64,000 nucleotides of DNA from Escherichia phage ALITA, in the sequence record PP359570; one strand, given 5' to 3'. A program made the position numbers and the translations under genes. Of this stretch, positions 815 to 54,038 are shown one piece after another (the stretch's first letter is position 1; each line of letters begins with the position of its first letter). The notes beneath the pieces are model-generated. The model saw nothing but the letters and a program-made list of their open reading frames with translations. It had not been told where the DNA came from and did not search any database.

Positions 815-1792
815 TTAAGCAACAGTCTGGTCTTCTTTTTCAGGGAAGATTAAACTTGCAATAACACCCAACCCAAGAGTACCTAACACAATATACATAC
901 TGATCGTCGGATCAATGTGTGCTGGCAGGAAACTCACTTTTGCGTGCAGAGTTTCTGCAAACGGATGATACATCAGTTTTACACCCACAAACACCAGGAC
1001 TACGATAACTGCTTTCTCCAGATGAACCAAATACTTCAGTGCAACACTAAGAACAAAGAACAGAGCACGTAAACCTAAGATTGCACAAAGCATCGAAGAG
1101 AACACCAGCAGAGGTTCTTGTGTCACTGCAATTACTGCTGGAACAGAGTCTACTGCAAAGATTACGTCTACCATTTCCATTACAAACACACAAACCAGAG
1201 CCGGAGTTGCTACACGAACACCATTTTTGATTGTGAAGAACTTCTCACCATCCATCTGATCAGATACAGGGAACAGCTTACGAACAATACGAGTAGCCCA
1301 GTGTTTAGAGTAATCAATTTCTGCATCATTATCCCCAGCGAATACCATTTTAGCCGCACAGAAAAGGATGACAGCACCGAAGAAGATATTAACATACCAG
1401 CCCAAACTCAACAAGTAAGTACCTACTGCTACAAACACACCTCGGAAGACAATTGCACCTGCAATACCCCAAAGTAGAATCTTGTGCTGCAAGTGTGTGC
1501 TTTTAATACCAAAACTTGCGAAGACTGCCACAAATACTACTAAGTTATCTACAGAAAGAGATTTCTCCAACACATAACCACTCAAGAACAAGCTCGCAAA
1601 ATCAGCACCGTGTTGGAAGTATACAAAACCATAGTAGGCTAATGATACCCCAATCCAGAAAATTGACCAGCCAATTGCAGATTTAAATGAGATCTCTTTG
1701 TTTTCTCTGTGTCCAAAGAAGTCAATACAAATCGACAAGACTAAAATACCCACTAAAACAACCACATCAATAATTGGGAAACCCAGTTGCAT
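815..1792 (-). CDS. TerC-family integral membrane protein
   Basis: 325 aa, multiple TM helices, TerC-like LEKSLSVDNLVVF motif; AGAGGAG RBS upstream of ATG. Confidence 0.75.
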   Translation of the reverse strand: MQLGFPIIDVVVLVGILVLSICIDFFGHRENKEISFKSAIGWSIFWIGVSLAYYGFVYFQHGADFASLFLSGYVLEKSLSVDNLVVFVAVFASFGIKSTHLQHKILLWGIAGAIVFRGVFVAVGTYLLSLGWYVNIFFGAVILFCAAKMVFAGDNDAEIDYSKHWATRIVRKLFPVSDQMDGEKFFTIKNGVRVATPALVCVFVMEMVDVIFAVDSVPAVIAVTQEPLLVFSSMLCAILGLRALFFVLSVALKYLVHLEKAVIVVLVFVGVKLMYHPFAETLHAKVSFLPAHIDPTISMYIVLGTLGLGVIASLIFPEKEDQTVA

Positions 1793-2348: not shown

Positions 2349-3065
2349 TTATTTCAGTTTGTAAACAATTACATTTAAACCTTTGTTCACTAGAGTTTCT
2401 TCGATCATAAGTTTTACAATATTCCAAGAACCTCCAGCCAAACCACAACCAAGCATTGGTAAACCTACAATTTTACCGCCTGAAGATACAACATCGTCTC
2501 CCATACTATCTAACGCATTGTAGATAGCTTCATAATTCAGGTCACGCTTACCTTCCTCACGACGACTATAACCATATTGTCCATATAAATTATAAATTGT
2601 CAAATTGTTTTCTGTATATTTGGTAAACGTACCTAATTTTTTATAATCACCACGTTTAGTGGCACAATCTGCTTTAAACGCACCAGGCCACTTGCTTTTA
2701 ATTTTTGGTGCAATACCACTACCCATAGTGCAAAAACAGTTACAGCAGTGTGCTATAGCGTCTATATCGCCTCTCTCGGCTGCTGCTAAAAGATCACCGT
2801 ATACCTCAATGATACCTGCCGGATAACTTGTTACAATTTCATCTTCCCAATACATTTTCTCTACACCACCGATCAGTGCAAAGTTTTGTGTAATGCGATC
2901 ATCAATATAGTTAAGACCTGAAACATACACAGCGTATTCATCCTGTGCTGTAATACCTTGCACACGAATTCTTAAGACACCATCTTTATCTGTTGCTACA
3001 CGCCCAAAATCTTTTTCTGTAATATTGGTGATAGGATCTCCGAAAGTCATTACTTTATTAGACAT
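2349..3065 (-). CDS. macro-domain protein (TARG1/OARD1-like ADP-ribose-processing fold)
   Basis: Start moved to internal MSNKV (ATG about 3063-3065) just after the stop of the upstream gene; motif IAHCCNCFCTMGSGIAPKIKSKW resembles the AHC..(D)C.MGAGIA signature of TARG1-type macrodomains. Confidence 0.55.
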   Translation of the reverse strand: MSNKVMTFGDPITNITEKDFGRVATDKDGVLRIRVQGITAQDEYAVYVSGLNYIDDRITQNFALIGGVEKMYWEDEIVTSYPAGIIEVYGDLLAAAERGDIDAIAHCCNCFCTMGSGIAPKIKSKWPGAFKADCATKRGDYKKLGTFTKYTENNLTIYNLYGQYGYSRREEGKRDLNYEAIYNALDSMGDDVVSSGGKIVGLPMLGCGLAGGSWNIVKLMIEETLVNKGLNVIVYKLK

Positions 3066-3915
3066 AATAATCCCCTTTAACATTAGGTTTGTTGATAATG
3101 TTGCTTTCAAAAAATTGACGTAGGAAATCAAAGTTCTCTTTGTATTTTTCAATGTTATTGTAACCTTCTGCAAGGCAACCAAAGAACAGTTGTTCTACAT
3201 AATACAAAGGAAGTTGTGAAAGTGCAATTTTAAAATCAACTTCGCTTTGACTCATTAGATACTTAATAGGACGAACCAAACATTTAGCATCAGCTTCTTG
3301 CTTAATCATTTTAATAAAAGCTGCCAGATTATTGATATAGTTGAAGTTAAGTGCAGCTTCGGTGTTGGCTTCTGTACCTTCATACTTTGCAAAGTACAGG
3401 AAAAACGTATCGTTTTCAACACCTTCTTTGTCTAAAATTTCAATAAGTTTTTCTTCGTGTGTTCCTGTAATATTAACATCATCAATGAAAATCAGAGTTT
3501 TATTACCCCAGAAATCACGATTGATAGAGAAAGTGTCACCATCGATCAAAGCCTTACGATCTTCTTTGCTAAGAAATCCATAATCATTGATATAGCTCAC
3601 TTTACGATGAACGATATCCCACTCCACTGGTTTACCACCTTTGATAGAGATTAGGTAGTTGAGGTGATCTACAAAATGTTCAGATAACACTGTAGCTGCA
3701 TTTTTCACATAGTTATATGGAGATGGAATAACAACAAAACTTTCATTTACCAGTCGTTCTTCATACTTAGAAAAGAAACTTTCAGCCAGAATGCGCCCCA
3801 TTCTTTTTGCTGCCTGGTTACTACCAAACTTTAGTTTGGAATAATCTGCAATGTTAAATTTTGCTTCCTTCAGGTTAGTAAAAGTATTAGCAAAATGTTG
3901 AATTTGATTACGCAT
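3058..3915 (-). CDS. phosphoribosyltransferase (type I PRTase)-like protein
   Basis: KTLIFIDDVNITGTHEE matches the PRPP-binding loop (hydrophobic x4-DD-x-TG-T); stop abuts the macro-domain gene start. Confidence 0.45.
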   Translation of the reverse strand: MRNQIQHFANTFTNLKEAKFNIADYSKLKFGSNQAAKRMGRILAESFFSKYEERLVNESFVVIPSPYNYVKNAATVLSEHFVDHLNYLISIKGGKPVEWDIVHRKVSYINDYGFLSKEDRKALIDGDTFSINRDFWGNKTLIFIDDVNITGTHEEKLIEILDKEGVENDTFFLYFAKYEGTEANTEAALNFNYINNLAAFIKMIKQEADAKCLVRPIKYLMSQSEVDFKIALSQLPLYYVEQLFFGCLAEGYNNIEKYKENFDFLRQFFESNIINKPNVKGDYYV

Positions 3916-4564
3916 TAATAAGTTCCTCTTTTTTAAGTTTAGCCAACAAGTCTTCTGGATTAATAATATGACAGAACTTCATCCCTATGTCAACAGCTTT
4001 TCCATCATAAATCAAACTATCTCCAACGTGTAAAATCTCTTCTGGTGCGAGATCAAACGTCACCATTTCATCAAAAGAGAGTTTAAAAAACCTAGGATCT
4101 GGTTTACACAAGCAAAACTCGTCAGAAAAATGCATAAAGTCAAATGGTAATTTTGTTAAGCCAGAATATACAGCTAAGAAACTACCTGGTACAAAATTAG
4201 TATTGCTCTTAATACTCAAAGAGTAGGTTGAACTTAGCTCTTCCAACTTCTTGCAAAGTTCAGGATTCAATGTTGGAGGATGTTTTATAAACATTGCCAA
4301 ACAATCTCTTTTTAACCCATCCACTTTATCAAGATCAATGTTCAAACGAGTAGAAAGTGTTACCCAAGCATCCTTAGACGTTCCACAAATGCCTTTTTCT
4401 GCTTTTAAATCCAAGAAAGTTTTTACCTCTTTGTATACGGTAGCTGCTTCTGCCTCAGAGCAAGAGGCATACTCGGCAATAACCTTGTTGCGCTCTTCTG
4501 CATACAAAGGGTTAGCAGTAATAAGAGTATTCCATACATCAAAAGAAATATGCTTAACAGTCAT
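3908..4564 (-). CDS. HAD-superfamily hydrolase/phosphatase-like protein
   Basis: Start at MTVKH (ATG about 4562-4564, GGAGG RBS); HAD motif I-like ISFDVWNTL and motif IV-like HVGDSLIYDG; overlaps PRTase-like gene start. Confidence 0.55.
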   Translation of the reverse strand: MTVKHISFDVWNTLITANPLYAEERNKVIAEYASCSEAEAATVYKEVKTFLDLKAEKGICGTSKDAWVTLSTRLNIDLDKVDGLKRDCLAMFIKHPPTLNPELCKKLEELSSTYSLSIKSNTNFVPGSFLAVYSGLTKLPFDFMHFSDEFCLCKPDPRFFKLSFDEMVTFDLAPEEILHVGDSLIYDGKAVDIGMKFCHIINPEDLLAKLKKEELINA

Positions 4565-10754: not shown

Positions 10755-13529
10755 TTAGTTTACCAGTTTATTTATATCTGGTAAAAGATTTATTTCACCT
10801 AAGAAATCACCTTCACCTTCCTCTAGCCAACTCTCATATGCTTGTGCATGATTATAGTTACCATCAAAAGAATCTGCAACAAATTTTTCTACAGTTTTTC
10901 GAGATGTGCCAGCACCAAATACACCAAGTTTAATACCATTGATCGGTAAAGTGGTGCTTGTGGGTACTTTCTCTGTTGCAACACGGTTGATATCTATAAT
11001 CTCCTGTACGGTTGTGTTCCATTGTAAGCATTTAACACAACGGGTATGCGCTACATACAGTAGGTTTCGCTCTGCCTCTTCCAGTCCTACCCATTCACCA
11101 GTCTTTTTATCATAGTTGGAAGGAAAATCATTAGCAACAATAACCTGATCCCACTCCAAACCTTTAGACTTGTGTGCTGTAGTCAGTGTGACTTTTGCTG
11201 TAGGAGAATTTCTATGCGTTCTAAGTGTATGTGCTATAGTGTTTGCCTTACCAGAAACTACGATGTTTAACAAGCGTTTAGCATCTGGATCAGCCTCTGC
11301 ACACTCAACAAATTCATCCCAGTCTGCGTAAGGTAATACAGTTTCATGTTTTACTTTCTCAATATCTCCTCTCCGAAGAGCATTAACACTATCTACCATA
11401 GAGATAAAATCCCTGGTATCTACGTTAATAATAATTTCTTCCCCATCTGCAATACGATCCATTGCCTCCATAAGCAAGGTTAAATTCTTGCGAAAGATGA
11501 TAGTGTAAGGTTTTGTATAGTCTACAACATCTGATTTGTAGCTACCTACTACAGTATCAAAGCCTTTACCAACCAAAGGATGACGCAAAGGTTCTTTATC
11601 GCTTAAAATCATATTGGCAATGTTTGCCACTTTGGGGCCAAAACGGAAGCAAGCAGTTAATGGAAGTTCTGCCCCATACTTAGCTGTTTCAATCATCATA
11701 TTAGAGCTACCTCTAAATTGATAAATGCAGTTGTGGCTAAGAATTTCATTGCCAAAGAAGTTAGCAGTATCCTCTACTTCAATATCATAATAGATACCCT
11801 CACTATCTACAATGTCCACAATCTCTTCTGCCGTTACAGTATCACCATCTTTTACCAACACAGACATGCCTTTAAACAAACCCGCTGCCGGAATTAAGTT
11901 ATATTTGGCACTGTTCACAGAGGACATGCATTCTTTTAAAGATGCAAACGGAACTATTTCAAGGATCTTTTGTGCAAAACTCAATGCTTCACGATAAGAA
12001 TTGAAATATTTACGTACACGGTAACGACCTTCCAATTTAGCAGCACTTACGCTTACACCTGCTTTAATCAGTGAAGAATAGATCGGCATTTCACTTTCTG
12101 TCCACTCAAAACTAACTTGTGTTCCTTTACAACCTTGTGCTCGCAAAGTCACTGTTAGCATTTTTCTTTCATCTACTGCACAATTGATGCTGTGCCAGTG
12201 TGGATAAGCAAAATGATAATCTTTATCCTCTAAAAGTTTAAAACCATTTTGTCCGAATTGTTCAAAGATGTTATTGATCCTTTCTTGATTAATGCCGCGT
12301 GAACTTGCTTCAAATACACAAGTAGGAATGCCATATTGTAAACTGTAAGCCATTTCTTTTTCCATAGCAGCTTCACGGTTTTCAACAATATCCAACACCC
12401 ATAATTTCTGTGCTTTTTCAGAACGTGTACGTTGCCCCAGTTTAGAAAAACCTTCTTTATCATCGAATTTGTTAGTGATCCCTACTCGGAAACCTAAATC
12501 TTTCCTCCACATTAGGTATACCACCATCTGATCATCTTTCAGAACATAGGATGAAGCCCAAATACGATGGTTATGTGTCATATCTAAAGTTTTACCTGTG
12601 GCAGTAATAATATTCCTACCTTTTGTACGTGTAGATAAAGTCTTATTTGTTACTTTTCTAAATGTAACTTTACCATTAGAATAAGACTCTACCTTATCAC
12701 CGATTTGCAGGTCTTTCATTGTAACCTGACCATTCTCGGTATTAAGTACCGTGTTTTCCGACACACATTGGAATTCATCGCCCACTACCACAATTTGTTT
12801 TGCAGATTTAGCATTTCGCAGAATAGACAAGAATGCAGGGTTAACATCCTGGAATTCATCACCAAAAATAATATCATAACCAAGATCAGCACCAGACAAT
12901 TCAAACAATTTTACATAGGTGTCATGCGTCATTAAAGTATCTGTGTTAGGATCGATGCGCTCTCGCCACAATTGTTTTGCATACTTAACTACTTCTGTAA
13001 TTAGTTTGTGTTCGTTAATACCTTTTCTTTTAATATCTGCAAGATGTACACTAGGAAAATGTTTACGGCTGATAAAAGGATCATCCGAAAATTCAAACTT
13101 ACCTACGGTTTGCTTGATCATTAAACCGATCATAGCACGAGTTAAAAGTGTTTTACCTCGTTTATCAATAAGATTATTAATCTTAAATTTCTTTGCTATC
13201 TCACTACCTGTACCTGCAACGTTAACATACTGTCCTTCTGGTCGTGACAGTTTTGCACGTAAACGATGATCCAGGAATTGATAGCAAATAGAATGCAATG
13301 TACGGCATTCTACATTTAGTGGCATCTTACGTCGTGCTTCTTCTGCCATGCTTTTATTGAAAGCTAAGTAAAGAATGCGATCTTCTGTACTGTTAGCCAG
13401 CAAATAAAGTGTTGACGTTTTGCCTGATCCAGATTTAGCTTGGATAGTTAAAAAGCGATGGTCTGGAAAAGCCTCCTTAATAGCTGTTTGCTCTTCTGTT
13501 GGAGTGAAGCTCAACTCTTTCTTAGCCAT
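10755..13529 (-). CDS. UvrD/PcrA-like SF1 DNA helicase, interrupted by an in-frame intein
   Basis: Walker A AKSGSGKTST, motif II GDEFQD; motif III split as VVVGDEFQ / CIYQFRGSS by a 346-aa insertion; start set at MAKKE with GAGAGG RBS. Confidence 0.8.
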   Translation of the reverse strand: MAKKELSFTPTEEQTAIKEAFPDHRFLTIQAKSGSGKTSTLYLLANSTEDRILYLAFNKSMAEEARRKMPLNVECRTLHSICYQFLDHRLRAKLSRPEGQYVNVAGTGSEIAKKFKINNLIDKRGKTLLTRAMIGLMIKQTVGKFEFSDDPFISRKHFPSVHLADIKRKGINEHKLITEVVKYAKQLWRERIDPNTDTLMTHDTYVKLFELSGADLGYDIIFGDEFQDVNPAFLSILRNAKSAKQIVVVGDEFQCVSENTVLNTENGQVTMKDLQIGDKVESYSNGKVTFRKVTNKTLSTRTKGRNIITATGKTLDMTHNHRIWASSYVLKDDQMVVYLMWRKDLGFRVGITNKFDDKEGFSKLGQRTRSEKAQKLWVLDIVENREAAMEKEMAYSLQYGIPTCVFEASSRGINQERINNIFEQFGQNGFKLLEDKDYHFAYPHWHSINCAVDERKMLTVTLRAQGCKGTQVSFEWTESEMPIYSSLIKAGVSVSAAKLEGRYRVRKYFNSYREALSFAQKILEIVPFASLKECMSSVNSAKYNLIPAAGLFKGMSVLVKDGDTVTAEEIVDIVDSEGIYYDIEVEDTANFFGNEILSHNCIYQFRGSSNMMIETAKYGAELPLTACFRFGPKVANIANMILSDKEPLRHPLVGKGFDTVVGSYKSDVVDYTKPYTIIFRKNLTLLMEAMDRIADGEEIIINVDTRDFISMVDSVNALRRGDIEKVKHETVLPYADWDEFVECAEADPDAKRLLNIVVSGKANTIAHTLRTHRNSPTAKVTLTTAHKSKGLEWDQVIVANDFPSNYDKKTGEWVGLEEAERNLLYVAHTRCVKCLQWNTTVQEIIDINRVATEKVPTSTTLPINGIKLGVFGAGTSRKTVEKFVADSFDGNYNHAQAYESWLEEGEGDFLGEINLLPDINKLVN
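11730..12767 (-). mobile_element. intein (346 aa) within helicase motif III
   Basis: Begins with Cys (CVSENTVL...), ends ...SHN followed by Cys; block-B-like TxxH (THNH); excision would restore contiguous GDEFQ-CIYQFRGS; size suggests an embedded homing-endonuclease domain. Confidence 0.7.
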
Positions 13530-14552: not shown

Positions 14553-14918
14553 TTAAACGTTTTCTAAATCTTTTAAGGCATTACCCAACGTTAGAACAAT
14601 AACATCGTTTGCTGCCTCTTCCCCATTGATATTGGTGAAATTTGGTGTGACAAAAGTAACCATATAAAACTCGTCCACCTGGAAGACAGCAATAACACCA
14701 TCCATCTTAACATCTTGACGAAAGGAAAAACCAATCATCTTCTCTTGCAAAGGCATATCCCCTTCCTTCATTACTGCCAGGGAGTTTTCAGGAATGTTAT
14801 ATTTATCTGCTCCGATGTAGATGTACGTAATGTTATCTTTATCGTGATGATACAGGGTTGCTTTTTCCATATCTAAACCTGACAGATCAAATACGTTAAT
14901 TTCTTGTGTAGTCTTCAT
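14553..14918 (-). CDS. hypothetical protein
   Basis: Start moved to MKTTQE (GGGAGG RBS) to resolve overlap with upstream ORF. Confidence 0.45.
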   Translation of the reverse strand: MKTTQEINVFDLSGLDMEKATLYHHDKDNITYIYIGADKYNIPENSLAVMKEGDMPLQEKMIGFSFRQDVKMDGVIAVFQVDEFYMVTFVTPNFTNINGEEAANDVIVLTLGNALKDLENV

Positions 14919-15282
14919 AAATATCCTCCCAAATCCAATAATCATCTGTGTAAGTAGGATGCCTTTTATCCCACTCTGTTCTAGCCCAAGCAACCGCTGC
15001 TACCAACACATCACCATGACAAGGTTGAGGTGAGCAGAAGCAAACTAAATCTTTCCCTTCTAATTCTAACAAATCTTCAAGAGTGATTTTACCACAACGA
15101 ATTTGCTCCCACAACCACTCTTTATATCTTTGTATAGTTGATCCTCGTGGTTCATCATCCTTTAACTTAAAAGGATTTGCAAACTTTGAGGCTTTTAACC
15201 CCATATGAGGCATAGCTCTGCCAATGTACACTGCACCTTCAGGTATTACTTTACCTAAATGGTAGAAATTTAATACTTTCAT
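14896..15282 (-). CDS. DUF4326-like protein
   Basis: VYIGR...ANPF...CFCSPQPCHGDVL pattern resembles DUF4326; start moved to MKVLNF. Confidence 0.4.
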   Translation of the reverse strand: MKVLNFYHLGKVIPEGAVYIGRAMPHMGLKASKFANPFKLKDDEPRGSTIQRYKEWLWEQIRCGKITLEDLLELEGKDLVCFCSPQPCHGDVLVAAVAWARTEWDKRHPTYTDDYWIWEDIYEDYTRN

Positions 15283-22267: not shown

Positions 22268-22296
22268 TAAAAACCCGCTTCGGCGGGTTTTCTTGT
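22268..22296 (+). terminator. rho-independent terminator (AAACCCGC-TTCG-GCGGGTTT plus T-run)
   Basis: Perfect hairpin followed by TTTCTTGTAT; same sequence recurs near 47227 and, inverted, near 51595. Confidence 0.7.
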
Positions 22297-22328: not shown

Positions 22329-23735
22329 ATGCCAGCACCAAAATCATGGGAACAATATAAAGAAGAATTAACACCCCTTGCTAAAAATCACAACATTCAG
22401 ATTCTGGGTTATATTGGTGAATGGAAAGGGAGCAAGACTAAACTTAAGCTATCTTGCTCTGATCATGGGGAGTGGGAAAGTACCATAATCAATAGCTTTA
22501 AAACTAAAGGCGGTAAATGTTGCCCCGATTGCAATGGTCGTAGAAAAGTAACAGAAGAAAAGGAATGTATTTCCCTTGTTGATGTTGCTAAAGAAAGAGG
22601 GTTTACTTTTATAGGTCTTGCCGAAGAGTGGCGAGGTGTGCTAACAAAAATCCGCATAGTTTGCCCTAAACATGGAGAGTGGAACACCACGACCATTAGT
22701 GGTTTTAGGAAGGGACGTGGTTGTCCGGCATGTGCAAGTAATAAGCCGTTAACATGGGAAACAGAATTACCGATCTTGGAAGAGATAGCACAGAAGAAGG
22801 GGTATCAGGTGTTAGGGTACGTGGGAGAATGGAAAGGGATTGATACAAAACTTGATTTGTTGTGTCACTGTGGTAACAGATGGGATACTACAAGTATTAA
22901 CAGTTTTAAACATGATCATGGTTGTCCTTTATGTGGGTATGAGAATACAAGGAAGGCACAAACAATACCCGACGATCAACATATTGCAGATTTCTTTTCT
23001 ACAGGGAAATTTAAGGAAGGCACTATCTTTACCAATACAGGGAAACGTAGTTGTAGTAAAAACAAGGACATTATCTGGATGATCGAATGTCCTGTTTGCT
23101 CTCATGATGAGTATGTGCAAGCAGGTGTATGTGATGGTAAGTTTTATATGACACGTAGCGATCTTAAGGCTGGACACTTGCCCTGCCGCTGTGCAACTAA
23201 CTCTCATTATACAGAAAATCAGATTACCTACAGGGTAAAAAAGGAAGTAGAAGGGAGAGGGTATGTCTGGGTAGGTTGGATCGGTAAACCGTCTATAAGA
23301 CTGGGTAATTTTAAATATCTTTGTCTTGTTCATGGGGAACAAATTGGTAGTGCTTATCGCTTACTATATCAGGATAATGGTTGTCCACAATGTGCAGGTC
23401 ATAGTCAGCAGCAATTGTATGTTAATGTTGTTAAAGATAATGGTATTATAGTTGCTCTTAAGTTTGGTATATCTAAAGATAGTGCTAGGAGATTAAACAT
23501 TCAAAATAGGCGTAATATGTTTTTTATGGAGCGTATTTGTTTATATGATTTTAGTACAGTGAAGCAGTGTAAGGCTGCTGAAAGAGCTATAAAGAAAAAA
23601 TTAAAAACTGGTATCTTAACAGCAAGAGAGTTGAAAGATGGTTATACAGAAACAGTAAGTGTTTCTGATTTGGAAAATCTTCAAAAAATTATTACACAAT
23701 ATGGTGGCAAATTAGTATACAGTAAGGAGGTGTAA
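22329..23735 (+). CDS. tandem zinc-ribbon repeat protein with C-terminal GIY-YIG-like (T5orf172-type) domain
   Basis: About 5 repeats of GY.GEWKG..TKL...C..HGEW.TT.I..FK...GCP.C; C-terminal LYVNVV...ALKFGIS...RR...E resembles GIY / YIG / Arg / Glu arrangement. Confidence 0.45.
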   Translation: MPAPKSWEQYKEELTPLAKNHNIQILGYIGEWKGSKTKLKLSCSDHGEWESTIINSFKTKGGKCCPDCNGRRKVTEEKECISLVDVAKERGFTFIGLAEEWRGVLTKIRIVCPKHGEWNTTTISGFRKGRGCPACASNKPLTWETELPILEEIAQKKGYQVLGYVGEWKGIDTKLDLLCHCGNRWDTTSINSFKHDHGCPLCGYENTRKAQTIPDDQHIADFFSTGKFKEGTIFTNTGKRSCSKNKDIIWMIECPVCSHDEYVQAGVCDGKFYMTRSDLKAGHLPCRCATNSHYTENQITYRVKKEVEGRGYVWVGWIGKPSIRLGNFKYLCLVHGEQIGSAYRLLYQDNGCPQCAGHSQQQLYVNVVKDNGIIVALKFGISKDSARRLNIQNRRNMFFMERICLYDFSTVKQCKAAERAIKKKLKTGILTARELKDGYTETVSVSDLENLQKIITQYGGKLVYSKEV

Positions 23736-24287
23736 ATGCGGATTACTGATAAGTATGTGTTCTTCTTCTCGGCAAAAGATGAATTTAGCAACTGGTATCT
23801 ATCATCTTTTATTGAACCTTTAGCTCCCAAGTATAATAATTCTATTACAAGTTCTGTTGAATTTACTTGTGTGGAACAATATATGATGTGGAGAAAAGCA
23901 TGTTTGTTTTATGATTACAGTATTGCATCTTCTATTTTAACCGGAGATCTAAGATATACAGGAGAAAAAGAACAAGCATATTATAAACGACTAGGCAGAT
24001 TAGTTAAAGATTATGATGAAGATACCTGGGCTTCTTTACGGGAGAAGATTGTCAAGCGTGGTTTGTATCTTAAATACACACAAAATGAAGATCTCAAAAA
24101 TAAACTTATCGCTTACGCAGATAAGGAGTTCGTAGAGGCAAGCCCCTATGATTCTATTTATGGTATCAAAATGGGGATGTGGGATCGGGACGTGGAAAAT
24201 AAGGATTGTTGGAAAGGGCAAAATCTTTTAGGAAAATGGCATACAGACCTTGCTGTTTATCTAAAATCACAATCTGATATTTCCTGA
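23736..24287 (+). CDS. NADAR (YbiA/DUF1768-like) domain protein
   Basis: FFFS..DEFSNWY, EQYMMWRKA, LGRLV, KFVEASPYDSIYGIKMG match conserved NADAR blocks. Confidence 0.55.
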   Translation: MRITDKYVFFFSAKDEFSNWYLSSFIEPLAPKYNNSITSSVEFTCVEQYMMWRKACLFYDYSIASSILTGDLRYTGEKEQAYYKRLGRLVKDYDEDTWASLREKIVKRGLYLKYTQNEDLKNKLIAYADKEFVEASPYDSIYGIKMGMWDRDVENKDCWKGQNLLGKWHTDLAVYLKSQSDIS

Positions 24288-24504
24288 TATTTTGAAAATT
24301 TTTATTTTTATAAAAAGGGGTGTGGGTTTCATGTACGGAAATCCACCCTCTGAATAATATATCCAGAGTAAGTAGTATTCTGTACTCTGTTAATAAAGTA
24401 TTTAATTTGTTTGTTGGATTATGGTGGCTGATCTTTAAAAGGCATACTATCTCTTAACTACTACTTATAACAAAACAGTAAAATCCTTTTTATAAAAGTA
24501 CAAA

Positions 24505-24715
24505 ATTATTTAAAGTTTTTACAGATTTTCGGGTACAAATTTTGAAAATGAAAAGTTCAAGTTTGGTCAAAATTATTTAAAGTTTTTGTACGTATTTCTG
24601 TCCAGATTTTGAAAATGAAAACTTCAATTTTTTAAAAATTCCCCAGTTTATTTAAAGTTTTTTTGCCTTTTTCCGTAGAAAAATCAAAAATGAAAAGTTC
24701 AATTTCGTGTTTTTA
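24505..24715. repeat. three ~70-bp imperfect direct repeats (iteron-like)
   Basis: Each unit contains TATTTAAAGTTTTT ... TTGAAAATGAAAA(G/C)TTCAA; non-coding, AT-rich. Confidence 0.6.
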
Positions 24716-24723
24716 TAGGTGTG

Positions 24724-24840
24724 TTAATGAGAATCATTTTCGTTTGTAAATGAGAATCATTATCATTTAACTATGTAAGTGATAATCATTCTCAGTAAGA
24801 GAATGAGAATCATTAGCAAATGAGAATTTTTCTCATTTAC
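24724..24840. promoter_or_regulatory. cluster of five Fur-box-like palindromic sites (AATGAGAATCATT family)
   Basis: AATGAGAATCATT x3, GTGATAATCATTCTC, and perfect palindrome AAATGAGAA-TTT-TTCTCATTT; core matches part of the GATAATGATAATCATTATC consensus. Confidence 0.45.
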
Positions 24841-25098
24841 AGAATAACGCGCAGGGGCGGTGTTTGTCTCGCGCTCCCGTGTCCCCTCGCCATACAATAA
24901 GAATAGCATAACCAATAACAAAAGCAAGCGATTATTTTTATCTTTACATTTCTTTACAAATTTATTTTAGACGAGCTACCGGCGATCAACCTTCCAACCA
25001 GTGCCCCCTGGTATGTTAGCCCCGCCTTTACGCCGTGGGGTGGCGTTTCCTCTTCTGTATGTAAAACAGTATAAGCCCGATCCCTGGGCTTGTCAAGA

Positions 25099-25365
25099 TT
25101 ATTTTTTGTTTTCTTGCCAGGATAGGACACCTAACCAAAAATACATGTCGCCCCGCGCCCCTGGTGGGATCTTGCTTTCCCCGCCGCCACTGCAAGCCCA
25201 TAAATAACCATCAGCGAACGGATCAAAGTGATCTATCTCTTCCACCTTATGATCGCCCAGGTTGAGAACGGTTTCAACCTTTAAGCCCGTTGCGCTTGCT
25301 ACCTGGTGCACCGTGCCGCCTTGCCAGCCCAGTGAGTGCATGAGATGTAAAGAAGTATTTGTCAT
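25099..25365 (-). CDS. hypothetical protein in GC-rich segment (uncertain)
   Basis: 88-aa ORF with GC-rich, enteric-like codon usage unlike flanking phage DNA; weak RBS; 3' end overlaps a consensus TTGACA-17-TATACT promoter on the same strand. Confidence 0.25.
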   Translation of the reverse strand: MTNTSLHLMHSLGWQGGTVHQVASATGLKVETVLNLGDHKVEEIDHFDPFADGYLWACSGGGESKIPPGARGDMYFWLGVLSWQENKK

Positions 25366-25737
25366 GGTATCGCCCTTTCTTTGTTGTGCGCCCTGGTTGG
25401 CGCGGTAGAAAGATGATAGCCGTTTCCTTCATATATAGCAAGCAAAAAAGAAATGAAAAAAAGATTAAAAAATGGTTGACGTTCCTCACCTGGTAGCGTA
25501 GTATTCATCTTGTCGAGGGGGGCAAGACACAACGACAATAAACAATAGGCGGGTGCAATGCAAGACGGGCAAAGGTGAGGATCTCCACAATCCACCGTCA
25601 CAATAACATTACTTATAAAAGGTTGATAACGATGATCAAGAAAGAAAATAGCTTGACGGTTGGAACGATTAACGCTATCATTCTTGCCGTTCCATTTTGG
25701 ATTGTAGTTGCGGTTATTATTTTCTAAAAAAATATTC

Positions 25738-25793
25738 TTGACAACGTTTTTTAATCTGATAAGATGTATCACATAGGGCGGCAATAGTGCCGC
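25738..25793 (+). promoter_or_regulatory. promoter plus 5' stem-loop cassette (PeSL-like) #1
   Basis: TTGACA, 16-nt spacer, TAAGAT, then CACATAGG-GCGGCA-ATAG-TGCCGC hairpin about 25 nt before the ATG. Confidence 0.6.
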
Positions 25794-25817
25794 TCATAAC
25801 AGAAGAGAGAAATAATC

Positions 25818-26090
25818 ATGGCATCATATAGCGCATCAATGATTGTAAAGGGTATCACTGGTAAACCTATGCGCGGTGGCGGATCTTTCGCTAACATCAA
25901 TATTGATGGACGTTTATCCCTGGACGCAGCGATCACAGTGGCACGGGAAACATTTAAAAAAGAATGTAATTTCAATAAACAAGATTATCTCGGTTTTGCT
26001 ATTGAAAAAACCGCGCGCTTTGTGGATTATAAAAGCCCGAAAATGATCGACACTACACTAAAAGCGCAAGATGTAGCGTTTTTGCTTTAA
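25818..26090 (+). CDS. hypothetical protein
   Basis: 90-aa ORF behind cassette #1. Confidence 0.5.
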   Translation: MASYSASMIVKGITGKPMRGGGSFANINIDGRLSLDAAITVARETFKKECNFNKQDYLGFAIEKTARFVDYKSPKMIDTTLKAQDVAFLL

Positions 26091-26093
26091 GAC

Positions 26094-26154
26094 TTGACAC
26101 TGAAAAATAATTTGATAATATATACCACATAAGGCGGGGAAATGGTTTCCCGCC
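26094..26154 (+). promoter_or_regulatory. PeSL-like cassette #2
   Basis: TTGACA-16-TAATAT then GGCGGGGAAATGGTTTCCCGCC hairpin. Confidence 0.6.
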
Positions 26155-26176
26155 AAATCAAAGAAAGGGTAATGCA

Positions 26177-36517: not shown

Positions 36518-36536
36518 GCAAATGATAATCATTATC
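36518..36536. promoter_or_regulatory. near-consensus Fur-box-like 19-mer
   Basis: GCAAATGATAATCATTATC matches the consensus GATAATGATAATCATTATC at 17 of 19 positions (16 consecutive). Confidence 0.5.
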
Positions 36537-47997: not shown

Positions 47998-48810
47998 TTA
48001 CTTAGTCAAATGATCTTCTATCATTTTTATGAAAGCAGGATTGCTAAAAGCCTCTGCTGCCTTTTCTCTATAAACAAAGACTCCTCTATCTTCGTAAAGA
48101 AGAGTTTCTTCGTAATTAATTCCTGGGTTAACAACAATCATTTTTGTACCCATATTAAGTGCAGGGAATAATTCCCAATTAAAATTGATAACTTGGTTTG
48201 AACATCCTACTACAACAACCAAATCTTGCATGGTCAAAGTATCAAACAAGTGAGCCATATCTGCATACAAAGGTGCAGCCTCACCAAAAAATACAACATT
48301 AGGCTTCACCCAGTTATAATCATCTATGTTTATACTATTGTAACCAATGTCTACCAGTGTTTTGTAATCTCCAGGATGCATACGGTAAACTACTTCAGGA
48401 AGATACCCGTGCACGTGAATAACAGAATCCCTGTCCACACCTGCTCGCTCTAATAGATCATCAACGTTTGTTGTCAAGTTTACTACTTGGTTAGGATATT
48501 CCTTAAACCACTTTGCTATTTGAATATGTGCAGCATTAGGTTGTACATCTTTAAGCTCAACACGTCTTTTGTTATAAAATTCGTGTGTTTTGGCATACAA
48601 ATCCATACCGTTCTCGTCTACACCACCGACCACTGGAAGATCTGGAGATGTTCTCACACGATAACCTGCTTGGAAAGCTCCAATATCGCAGACCTCTTCT
48701 AAATCATATTCTTCCCACAAGGCACGACCACTATCTGTGTCTGTTCGGAACGTTCGAATCCCACTGTCTGCACTTAAACCTGCGCCACTAACAAAAATTA
48801 CTCTTCGCAT
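47998..48810 (-). CDS. Sir2 (sirtuin)-family protein, NAD-dependent deacylase or ADP-ribosyltransferase-like
   Basis: FVSGAGLSADSGIRTFR (compare GAGIS.eSGIptFR), NVDDLLERAG...HVHG, KPNVVFFGE; no four-Cys Zn module. Confidence 0.7.
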   Translation of the reverse strand: MRRVIFVSGAGLSADSGIRTFRTDTDSGRALWEEYDLEEVCDIGAFQAGYRVRTSPDLPVVGGVDENGMDLYAKTHEFYNKRRVELKDVQPNAAHIQIAKWFKEYPNQVVNLTTNVDDLLERAGVDRDSVIHVHGYLPEVVYRMHPGDYKTLVDIGYNSINIDDYNWVKPNVVFFGEAAPLYADMAHLFDTLTMQDLVVVVGCSNQVINFNWELFPALNMGTKMIVVNPGINYEETLLYEDRGVFVYREKAAEAFSNPAFIKMIEDHLTK

Positions 48811-51881: not shown

Positions 51882-52402
51882 ACAATCTCCTCGTAATTGT
51901 TATTGTGTTTTACTGTCTCAACATACAATAAAGATTCCATCTGTAATACATTACCAGAAATAATAAACCCATAAGCCATTTCAGATGTGTCTATATCATA
52001 TGCCCCGTCTTCCGGTTTAGCAAAGTGTAAAACTATTTCATCTGGGTTTTCTTCATCCCATAGTTTAGAAATTTTCCGAACCAGAATGTTAGCTAAAATA
52101 GTTGACATTCGGGATAAAGCTGTATCCTCATATCTTTTAAAACCTAGCCAATAGAGGTTAAGAATTTCTACTTCTTCTTGTGTTAAGTTTTTGTCTAAAG
52201 TAATCAGATCTGTAGAGCACGGCGTTTTTGTTGAACCTACTGTTACAAAACCTGGAGTGTTATGAAAAACAATCTTAACTTTATCACGTATAAAGTTTAA
52301 ACCTTGTGCCTCAACTATATATTGTATTGTAGGTACAATATCGTTTGTTACATCAATAAAACTATCTTTAATGACGCTTATATTATTTCTGGACAATACC
52401 AT
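51878..52402 (-). CDS. hypothetical protein
   Basis: 174-aa ORF. Confidence 0.5.
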   Translation of the reverse strand: MVLSRNNISVIKDSFIDVTNDIVPTIQYIVEAQGLNFIRDKVKIVFHNTPGFVTVGSTKTPCSTDLITLDKNLTQEEVEILNLYWLGFKRYEDTALSRMSTILANILVRKISKLWDEENPDEIVLHFAKPEDGAYDIDTSEMAYGFIISGNVLQMESLLYVETVKHNNNYEEIV

Positions 52403-52961
52403 TCTCCTCTAAGATAGGCTTAATAAATTCGAAAATTTGTTTTTTACTTTTACCTCGAATATTAAAACAAGGAACATTAAACTTTTTAGCCAACATCCAA
52501 GCTGTTCTTGTACCACCTAAAGGATCTCCATTTTTATCTGTATTTGCACAAGCCAAAAGAAAACAAGATGGTTTTGGATTCTCAAGATCTCTTCCAAGAA
52601 CTTGGTGGATATTTCTTTGATGTAATTTTTTAGCACCTTGAGATAATCTGTCCCAAGCTGGATGCAATTCTTTTGCATATTGCAAGGTTAAAGCATAGTT
52701 TACACTATCTGGTCTGTCAAGAACAATAACCTCTCCCTCTATTTCATTACCTTTAAACGAGAGCCAAGGGATGTATATTTCTTTCTTTGTATTGTTCCCA
52801 CTATCATATACCCCGCATTCAAATGCGGAATCTGCACCTTCTGCTTTACCAGATCGCAAAATGAACCATGTAGATAGCCATTTTGCAACAGATACCATAG
52901 TATCCCATTCTTCGTCTGTAATATCTCTGCTACCAACACCTGTGTAGAATAAATCGCTCAT
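52383..52961 (-). CDS. Rossmann-like SLOG/DprA-type domain protein (tentative)
   Basis: Start at MSDLFY (GGAGAAAACC RBS); YTGVGSRD...SGKAEGADSA resembles the DprA/SLOG nucleotide-binding core. Confidence 0.35.
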   Translation of the reverse strand: MSDLFYTGVGSRDITDEEWDTMVSVAKWLSTWFILRSGKAEGADSAFECGVYDSGNNTKKEIYIPWLSFKGNEIEGEVIVLDRPDSVNYALTLQYAKELHPAWDRLSQGAKKLHQRNIHQVLGRDLENPKPSCFLLACANTDKNGDPLGGTRTAWMLAKKFNVPCFNIRGKSKKQIFEFIKPILEENGIVQK

Positions 52962-52971
52962 GGTTTTCTCC

Positions 52972-53292
52972 TTAACAAGTAATATTGGGAGTAACAATTG
53001 GATTAACAATTGGAGTGATAGGGTACGTAAACCAAGGGCTTCCAATTTCCCAAGGATTATAAGGTCTACGAGGATCAAATGGAGGAGTTACTTCAGGCTT
53101 TTTCCAAATCTCCGCTAGTTGTTTCTTCCATTTATCCCTTGCTGTCTCATTATCTTCATCCAACTGTTCATCATTATCTTTTATTTCTGGTTTTGGAAAT
53201 AAAAGCTCTTTGACTAACTCAACATCTTCCGTCTCAATAGTAGTTTCTTTCGTAAGTTCTCCTACTGTTTCTTTAATTGTGATTTTATACAT
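52972..53292 (-). CDS. hypothetical protein
   Basis: 106-aa ORF, Pro-rich C-terminus. Confidence 0.45.
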   Translation of the reverse strand: MYKITIKETVGELTKETTIETEDVELVKELLFPKPEIKDNDEQLDEDNETARDKWKKQLAEIWKKPEVTPPFDPRRPYNPWEIGSPWFTYPITPIVNPIVTPNITC

Positions 53293-54038
53293 TAGTCCTC
53301 CTCTAAAGTAGAATAAAATTGTAACGTATTTGAATCATCAAAATATGCAAAGGTTAAATTACCATTGAAGCAAGATCCTGTGTCCATATATACCCTATTA
53401 CTGCTAATCATAGGTTTAGGAACATAAGAATGCCCGTGAAATACATAATCTACTCCTGAAACCCTAGGAAGAAGAATCCCTTCAAGTGCGCAATCTATCA
53501 TATCACGATCCCACATTAAAGATTCTGTGAATCGAGAAACTTGCTCTTTATTCATATTCAAACAAAATGGCAAAACTTCTGTCACTGGTAAATGTTCCAA
53601 AACTGAAGGATACCCACCGTGAATAAAGCCTAGTTTCATATTACGATAATTGACAACAAGTACAACAGGTAAATCTTCTAGCATCAAAGCAAGAGCAGTT
53701 GCACCCTCTTCTCCACACTCGTCTAGAACTGTATGGCCTCCGTTCTGAAACCAACATTCGTAATATCGTCTATCACCTTCTAGCAACCCTTTAATCATCA
53801 TATCTTCATGGTTCCCACGAATACCATAACGATTTAGCTTTCTGGTGAATTCAACAACACAACGAAAATTCTGCTTGCCGCGATCTGTAAGATCTCCTAA
53901 AGATACAACAACATCTTGATCTCGGATACCTAAAGTATTAACACCTTTCTGGTACAAATCAAAGCAACCATGTAAATCACCAATAATAAACAGGTCTTGA
54001 TCATCTTTTACACTAATTTCTTGATATACTAGCATCAA
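53292..54038 (-). CDS. Ser/Thr protein phosphatase (calcineurin-like metallophosphoesterase)
   Basis: GDLHGC, GDLTDRG, GNHE motifs in canonical order. Confidence 0.8.
   Translation of the reverse strand: MMLVYQEISVKDDQDLFIIGDLHGCFDLYQKGVNTLGIRDQDVVVSLGDLTDRGKQNFRCVVEFTRKLNRYGIRGNHEDMMIKGLLEGDRRYYECWFQNGGHTVLDECGEEGATALALMLEDLPVVLVVNYRNMKLGFIHGGYPSVLEHLPVTEVLPFCLNMNKEQVSRFTESLMWDRDMIDCALEGILLPRVSGVDYVFHGHSYVPKPMISSNRVYMDTGSCFNGNLTFAYFDDSNTLQFYSTLEED

Follow-up and report, generated by a model that had tools for sequence, protein, structure and literature searches.

The closest described system to the locus considered here is AdfN^Bas60 (anti-DarT factor NADAR), the name given to the NADAR protein of the phages Bas60, Bas61 and Bas62 (Johannesman et al., Nat Commun 2025, PMC11825919). 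In brief, the DarT1 toxin is neutralised by AdfN^Bas60 in E. coli without any phage infection, and three DarTG1-sensitive phages, RB69, T5 and Bas25, plate again on DarTG1 hosts when it is expressed ectopically. Against DarTG2, which modifies thymidine, it is without effect. In the published tree it groups with bacterial NADARs outside both the YbiA-like and the DarT-associated ones, and BLAST and PSI-BLAST searches seeded with the T4 protein, AdfN^T4, missed it (PMC11825919). Here we describe a NADAR gene in a 64,000-nucleotide stretch of Escherichia phage ALITA (PP359570), the whole of which is called the window below. Its product is very probably an orphan ADP-ribosylglycohydrolase of the NADAR family, of the same type as AdfN^Bas60. 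The gene is real and confirmed, but it is a counter-defence gene (anti-DarT1) that has already been described.

The NADAR gene and its counterpart in phage Bas60

The gene and the elements directly upstream of it are the following.

23736-24287, plus strand: adfN-type NADAR gene, 183 aa, ATG start; predicted guanine ADP-ribosyl DNA glycohydrolase
23724-23730, plus strand: Shine-Dalgarno sequence AAGGAGG, 5 nt before the NADAR ATG and within the 3' end of the upstream gene
22329-23735, plus strand: homing-endonuclease-like upstream gene, whose product has four repeats of CapR homology and matches T5orf172 weakly; not part of the NADAR enzyme

The first-pass annotation, made from the letters of the sequence, had called this open reading frame (ORF) a NADAR (YbiA-like) gene. 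The ORF exists, and the motifs quoted for it (FSNWY, EQYMMWRKA, LGR and EASPYDSIYGIK) are all found in the translation. The protein matches Pfam PF08719 with 125.4 bits (expect value, E, 3.4e-36; gathering score 35.1) over profile positions 9-154 of 163, and NCBIfam TIGR02464 with 110 bits (cutoff 73.7). It also matches PHROG 1017, a family of unknown function (E 6.6e-50), and the NADAR structure PDB 8BAU (E 6.5e-13). The NADAR fold is confirmed, with small beta sheets on the sides of a YbiA-like, alpha-helical core. Small antisense and out-of-frame ORFs inside the gene have no support.

The first 25 kb of the window are approximately 97% identical to the phi92-like Escherichia myophages vB_EcoM_ZYD, ECGD1, PHB05 and PD06. 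The 4 kb around the NADAR gene share 93-94% identity with PaulScherrer, alia and further phages of the genus Justusliebigvirus (subfamily Stephanstirmvirinae). Judged by these identities, the window is DNA of a phi92-like E. coli myophage (Justusliebigvirus). A tblastn search with the NADAR protein gave 717 places in 716 phage records, which indicates that a genome with this gene has, in essence, just one copy. The identity is 100% in PHB05 and 97.8% in phi92, and 55 phage records have the protein with an identity of at least 95%. Distant relatives are found in approximately 660 further records, from large phages of enterobacteria, staphylococci, Listeria, enterococci and Bacillus.

The locus tags of phage PaulScherrer have the form bas60_xxxx, which identifies it as Bas60 of the BASEL collection. 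Its gene bas60_0111, annotated as 'putative YbiA-like N-glycosidase', encodes a protein, QXV83846.1, of the same length as the window protein and identical to it at 181 of the 183 positions. The two substitutions, A99T and S178T, are at neither conserved nor ligand-contacting positions, and bas60_0111 likewise follows the same CapR/T5orf172 endonuclease-like gene. Since bas60_0111 is the sole NADAR gene found in Bas60, as expected from the tblastn count of about one per genome, it is almost certainly the gene of AdfN^Bas60. On this protein identity and gene order, we regard the window gene as practically the AdfN^Bas60 gene, carried by a sister phage within the genus.

In related phages the GenBank labels of the gene are 'hypothetical protein', 'putative YbiA-like N-glycosidase' and 'GTP cyclohydrolase II'. 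Such annotations, together with the TIGR02464 score and the presence of E134, suggest a YbiA-type housekeeping N-glycosidase that destroys reactive intermediates of the riboflavin pathway during infection and has no role in counter-defence. We consider this explanation hardly credible. The near-identical AdfN^Bas60 is able to neutralise DarT1 and to rescue phages on DarTG1 hosts, and the published tree groups it with non-YbiA bacterial NADARs (PMC11825919), so that of the first-pass label the NADAR part stands and 'YbiA-like' is too loose. The similarity to E. coli YbiA itself is marginal (E 0.037), far weaker than that to 8BAU. In the syntenic region of Bas60, approximately 66 kb, no riboflavin gene is annotated, and we did not find one among the window ORFs that were profiled. 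It should be noted that E. coli YbiA hydrolyses guanine-linked ADP-ribose in vitro, and thus the name of TIGR02464 does not discriminate between the two activities.

The TAA stop codon of the upstream gene (23733-23735) directly abuts the NADAR ATG, and the two genes are therefore probably translationally coupled. They are probably also co-transcribed. Ahead of the pair there is a strong hairpin resembling a terminator (22270-22291). The upstream protein matches Pfam CapR in four stretches (E 7.2e-47) and PHROG 681, 'endonuclease' (E 2.3e-92); its T5orf172 match (E 0.0063) is under the cutoff of that family. The mobility of the pair may be aided by this homing-endonuclease-like neighbour.

Active site, proposed mechanism and substrate range

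Schuller et al. (Mol Cell 2023, PMC11543638) described the residues that contact ADP-ribose in the NADAR of Phytophthora nicotianae (8BAU) and the effects of mutants in the NADAR of E. coli C7. The roles of active-site residues given here are taken from that work. We mapped the 8BAU contact residues onto the window protein via a HMMER alignment, and 11 of the 13 are identical. In 8BAU numbering these are E43, K50, K75, G78, R79, V81, Y84, W89, R93, E125 and D130, with E47, K54, K84, G87, R88, V90, Y93, W98, R102, E134 and D139 as the counterparts in the same order. The remaining two are conservatively changed (8BAU D86 to E95 and W133 to Y142). E47, K54, K84, G87, W98, E134 and D139 are invariant across 44 diverse homologues. 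The active-site helix carries the catalytic Glu and Lys, which are E43 and K50 in P. nicotianae, E88 and K95 in C7, and E47 and K54 in the window protein; the acidic P. nicotianae E125 corresponds to E134. From the mapped contacts and their conservation we judge that the window protein is a compact NADAR of the 'Glu' type that consists of the core only.

We suggest the following mechanism. In an infected host with the DarTG1 toxin-antitoxin defence, DarT1 would put ADP-ribose on the N2 amino group of guanine in the phage DNA and thereby block replication. The phage enzyme would bind the ADP-ribose, with the diphosphate held by K54, R88, W98, R102 and D139 and the distal ribose held by E47 and E134. 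Hydrolysis of the N-glycosidic bond between ribose and guanine would give back unmodified DNA, on which replication could proceed. The enzyme would be free-standing, requiring neither binding to DarT1 nor another phage factor. At the level of residues the mechanism is transferred from the 8BAU structure and the mutagenesis of the C7 NADAR, and it is proposed by analogy with these. The window protein would be expected to neutralise DarT1, to restore growth on DarTG1 hosts and to be inactive against DarTG2, as published for the 99% identical protein. The activity proposed in the first-pass annotation, that is removal of ADP-ribose from guanine with protection against DarT-type toxins, has thus already been demonstrated for AdfN^Bas60.

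Some points weigh against an assignment as an anti-DarT1 factor. The equation of AdfN^Bas60 with bas60_0111 depends on the latter being the only NADAR found in Bas60. In the literature that we read there is no report of a deletion of the NADAR gene in a phi92-like phage, and the published tests were done by ectopic expression; that the phage needs the gene in its natural hosts is therefore something that we infer. Furthermore, the protein passes the cutoff of TIGR02464, a model named for N-glycosidases of riboflavin intermediates, and it has the Glu of the YbiA and general NADAR class, not the Asp of DarG1. Other or additional substrates are thus possible.

Such substrates could be ADP-ribose on cytidine or on RNA guanosine, or soluble immune signals derived from ADP-ribose, with DarTG1 as one target among several. 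NADARs that retain the Glu, here E134, removed both cytidine- and guanosine-linked ADP-ribose, and the Asp (DarG1) and His (T4) types acted on guanosine only (PMC12945103). ADP-ribosylation of guanosine on RNA was reversed by all NADAR families tested (PMC11833690), and soluble ADP-ribose derivatives have been proposed as substrates of phage NADARs (Iyer et al. 2022). The sole phenotypes reported for the AdfN^Bas60 clade are, however, specific to DarT1 (PMC11825919). We regard a broader range as possible though doubtful. It would be an addition to the anti-DarT1 function, with which it is compatible, and not a replacement for it.

The main value of the assignment is for annotation, as the gene can be named adfN with experimental backing. 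In addition, its presence predicts that phi92-like phages resist DarTG1-carrying E. coli, which is of use for phage therapy and host-range prediction.

Other genes connected to NAD or ADP-ribose, and the surrounding DNA

The first-pass annotation had counted at least four genes tied to NAD or ADP-ribose chemistry in the window, and from these it concluded that the phage invests heavily in reversing or exploiting ADP-ribosylation. Besides the NADAR gene, the genes in question encode a macrodomain protein, a Sir2-like protein and a DUF4326-like protein. They are listed here with the neighbours of the macrodomain gene.

2349-3065, minus strand: macrodomain protein, assigned to the SCO6735/BT1257/T4 Tk.4 class; Pfam Macro PF01661, 31.3 bits (cutoff 22), E 2.1e-7
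47998-48810, minus strand: Sir2-family protein, 270 aa; SIR2 PF02146, 81.1 bits (cutoff 24), E 1.3e-22
14896-15282, minus strand: stand-alone DUF4326 protein, 128 aa; PF14216, 77.3 bits (cutoff 25), E 1.4e-21
3058-3915, minus strand: PRTase_3 ComF-like phosphoribosyltransferase; overlaps the macrodomain gene and the HAD gene
3908-4564, minus strand: HAD hydrolase; overlaps the PRTase_3 gene
815-1792, minus strand: TerC-family membrane protein; 0.5 kb from the macrodomain gene

All four domains are present at these places. The check with hidden Markov models that had been proposed for NADAR and DUF4326 recovered both above the Pfam gathering scores. A chance ORF or a mis-called domain was rejected, as all four domain scores exceed the curated cutoffs and the NADAR fold is confirmed. 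The idea of a heavy investment is evidenced in part: the genes are dispersed, and the roles of the Sir2 and DUF4326 proteins are predictions from context in the literature.

The closest solved relatives of the macrodomain protein are SCO6735 of S. coelicolor (PDB 5E3B, E 3.2e-15), BT1257 of B. thetaiotaomicron, human TARG1 (E 3e-10) and DarG (E 9e-4). The protein is also 30% identical to T4 Tk.4 (E 9e-18). In the alignment with 5E3B the segments NLYGQYG, CNCF and GCGLAGG of the protein are aligned. A Gln is found at the position of the essential Gln85 of SCO6735, and the conserved Asn and the GCGLAGG loop are kept. On this homology the protein is classified as an ALC1-like macrodomain of the SCO6735/T4 Tk.4 (AdfM) subclass. 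PhiKZ AdfM was rejected as an orthologue, the similarity being too weak (24% identity, many gaps, E 0.002), and Tk.4 and SCO6735 are the better comparators. The Bas60 annotation starts the macrodomain gene 18 nt further upstream.

SCO6735 is able to remove ADP-ribose from thymidine and to rescue cells from DarT, and the roles of its residues are known (PMC9411070). Tk.4 has been identified as the anti-DarTG2 factor AdfM of T4 (2025 preprint). Removal of thymidine-linked ADP-ribose or countering of DarTG2 has been shown for SCO6735, T4 Tk.4 and PhiKZ gp104. The homology to SCO6735 and Tk.4 makes an anti-DarT2 role reasonable, and the macrodomain protein is a plausible candidate eraser of thymidine-linked ADP-ribose. 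In the literature that we read there is no report of anti-DarTG2 activity for the macrodomain of a phi92-like phage. T4 is a precedent for the presence of both AdfN and AdfM in one phage.

The macrodomain protein has an N-terminal extension of approximately 87 aa that has no Pfam match. Just 69 of the 2908 matching phage records cover at least 80% of the query, and most of the listed matches begin near residue 85-104. The extension thus appears to be largely restricted to phi92-like phages. The pair of phosphoribosyltransferase (PRTase) and HAD hydrolase genes is found in 156 phage records, including Rhizobium and Caulobacter/Brevundimonas phages, some of them jumbo phages. It resembles the module for a 'nucleoside-like metabolite' that the Aravind group described in Ter systems.

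The Sir2 protein matches PHROG 2162 (E 1.3e-105) and PDB 1S5P (E 1.5e-18). It is CobB-like in the Rossmann core, with GAGxS and HG motifs, and GAGLSADSGIRTFR and VIHVHG align with CobB. The NAD-binding GAGxS and the catalytic His are kept, but the segment aligned to the zinc-binding region of CobB contains no Cys, and therefore the protein may not be a conventional protein deacylase. It scores below the cutoff for all NCBIfam CobB models. Phages with a relative, among them T5-like and rV5-like ones, account for 983 records, and a role in RNA repair has been predicted for such phage sirtuins from their gene neighbourhoods (Iyer et al.).

For the DUF4326 protein we found 169 homologues, in which N5, G21, N36, L74, C81, C83, C88 and H89 are invariant (the Cys and His residues in 45 sequences). 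Its AlphaFold2 model has a predicted local distance difference test score (pLDDT) of 90.7. Among the homologues are a SLOG-DUF4326 fusion from a bacterium, and viral proteins in which DUF4326 is fused to SLOG and NADAR domains. DUF4326 has been assigned to the rhodanese-phosphatase superfamily and is predicted to process terminal phosphates of ADP-ribose derivatives (Iyer et al. 2022), and the fusions agree with this prediction.

Two further genes are located 3.5-5 kb from the Sir2 gene.

52383-52961, minus strand: DprA/SLOG-like protein; PHROG 768, E 7.5e-60, no Pfam match
53292-54035, minus strand: calcineurin-like phosphoesterase; Pfam E 3.1e-13

For one DprA-like protein of a phage, ORF83, an anti-Avs function has been reported. 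Among 19 further window ORFs scanned with Pfam there was no ADP-ribosyltransferase, Nudix, NadV or NMNAT. NARP3 (PnuC and NadR) was considered and is not relevant here.

The four genes might form one coordinated pathway, in which the NADAR, macrodomain, Sir2 and DUF4326 proteins cooperate. The presence of all four domains and of the DprA/SLOG-like protein in the same window is in line with this, as are the proteins of bacteria and of other viruses in which DUF4326 is fused to a SLOG, Macro or NADAR domain. However, distances of 9-24 kb separate the genes, which are found on both strands and belong to different clusters, and the macrodomain gene is in its own operon with the PRTase_3 and HAD hydrolase genes. 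AdfN^Bas60 acts alone in uninfected E. coli (PMC11825919). The numbers of records in the phage database also differ widely, with 716 for this type of NADAR, 2908 for Macro, 990 for DUF4326 and 983 for Sir2. A coordinated pathway is thus improbable in our view. The co-occurrence of such domains in large phages has already been described (Iyer et al. 2022). As a description the ADP-ribose theme is sound, and it is a known generality; we found no evidence in the window for a specific multi-gene system.

A looser arrangement is rather unlikely too, and we mention it as speculation. The core genes of phi92-like phages could hold a complete orphan pair of DarG-like erasers. One would be the Glu-type NADAR, maybe acting also on cytidine or RNA; the other would be the Tk.4-class macrodomain with its lineage-specific extension, located in a Ter-type PRTase-HAD-TerC module. 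The DUF4326, SLOG-like and zinc-less Sir2 proteins would then process released or signalling derivatives of ADP-ribose. If true, the eraser pair and the processing proteins would be a dispersed toolkit against ADP-ribosylation, with a range broader than protection from DarTG1.

The DNA directly 3' of the NADAR gene is gene-poor for approximately 2 kb (24288-26170), and 'repeat_region' features are annotated at this place in related records. An AT-rich part (24300-24850, 24% GC), with three direct repeats of approximately 70 nt at 24487-24705, is followed by a GC-rich part (25000-25450, approximately 52% GC). The stretch could be an origin or a regulatory hub. A Fur-box-like cluster is located at 24723-24817, with GATAATGATAATCATTATC at 24723, 24746 and 24799 with at most three mismatches each; the same sequence is found with two mismatches at 36518 (36518-36536). 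The window has seven such matches against 0.03 expected from shuffled sequences. The cluster suggests possible iron- or Fur-dependent regulation, or titration of Fur by the phage. We did not find tRNA genes, or any Rfam family at its gathering score, in the window; downstream of the NADAR gene there were just sub-threshold chance matches. By synteny with Bas60, the ORF at 10755-13529 (minus strand) encodes a UvrD/Rep-family helicase interrupted by an intein.

Comparison with known NADAR systems

The P. nicotianae NADAR (8BAU), from which the contact residues were mapped, is a structurally characterised guanine-ADP-ribose hydrolase. Unlike the window protein it is eukaryotic, is not from a phage and has no role in phage defence. 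E. coli YbiA (PDB 2B3W) does not protect cells from DarT1 and is encoded by a housekeeping gene in a LexA-controlled operon.

DarG1 is the NADAR antitoxin associated with DarT1, known for example from E. coli C7 and G. lovleyi (8BAT). It shares with the AdfN^Bas60 type the removal of ADP-ribose from guanine N2 and the neutralisation of DarT1. However, DarG1 has a catalytic Asp (D171 in C7) and a basic N-terminal beta1-beta2-alpha1 extension, whereas the window protein has neither and carries a Glu. The neighbours of the window gene are the endonuclease-like gene upstream and the gene-poor DNA downstream, and there is no DarT1 gene adjacent to it. An antitoxin of the DarG1 type, belonging to a toxin-antitoxin pair, was rejected on the lack of a DarT neighbour, the lack of the N-terminal extension and the replacement of Asp by Glu.

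AdfN^T4 (T4 gp30.3) is likewise an orphan NADAR of a phage, and it counters DarTG1 by removing guanine-linked ADP-ribose. At the level of sequence the window protein was rejected as its relative, with no detectable pairwise similarity (BLASTP against gp30.3, E 2.2), and a three-sequence MAFFT alignment is meaningless for gp30.3. The T4 clade has a His at the position of P. nicotianae E125, where the window protein has Glu134. The two types also differ in what they need from the phage: AdfN^T4 requires the context of a T-even infection for full activity, whereas AdfN^Bas60 works alone (PMC11825919).
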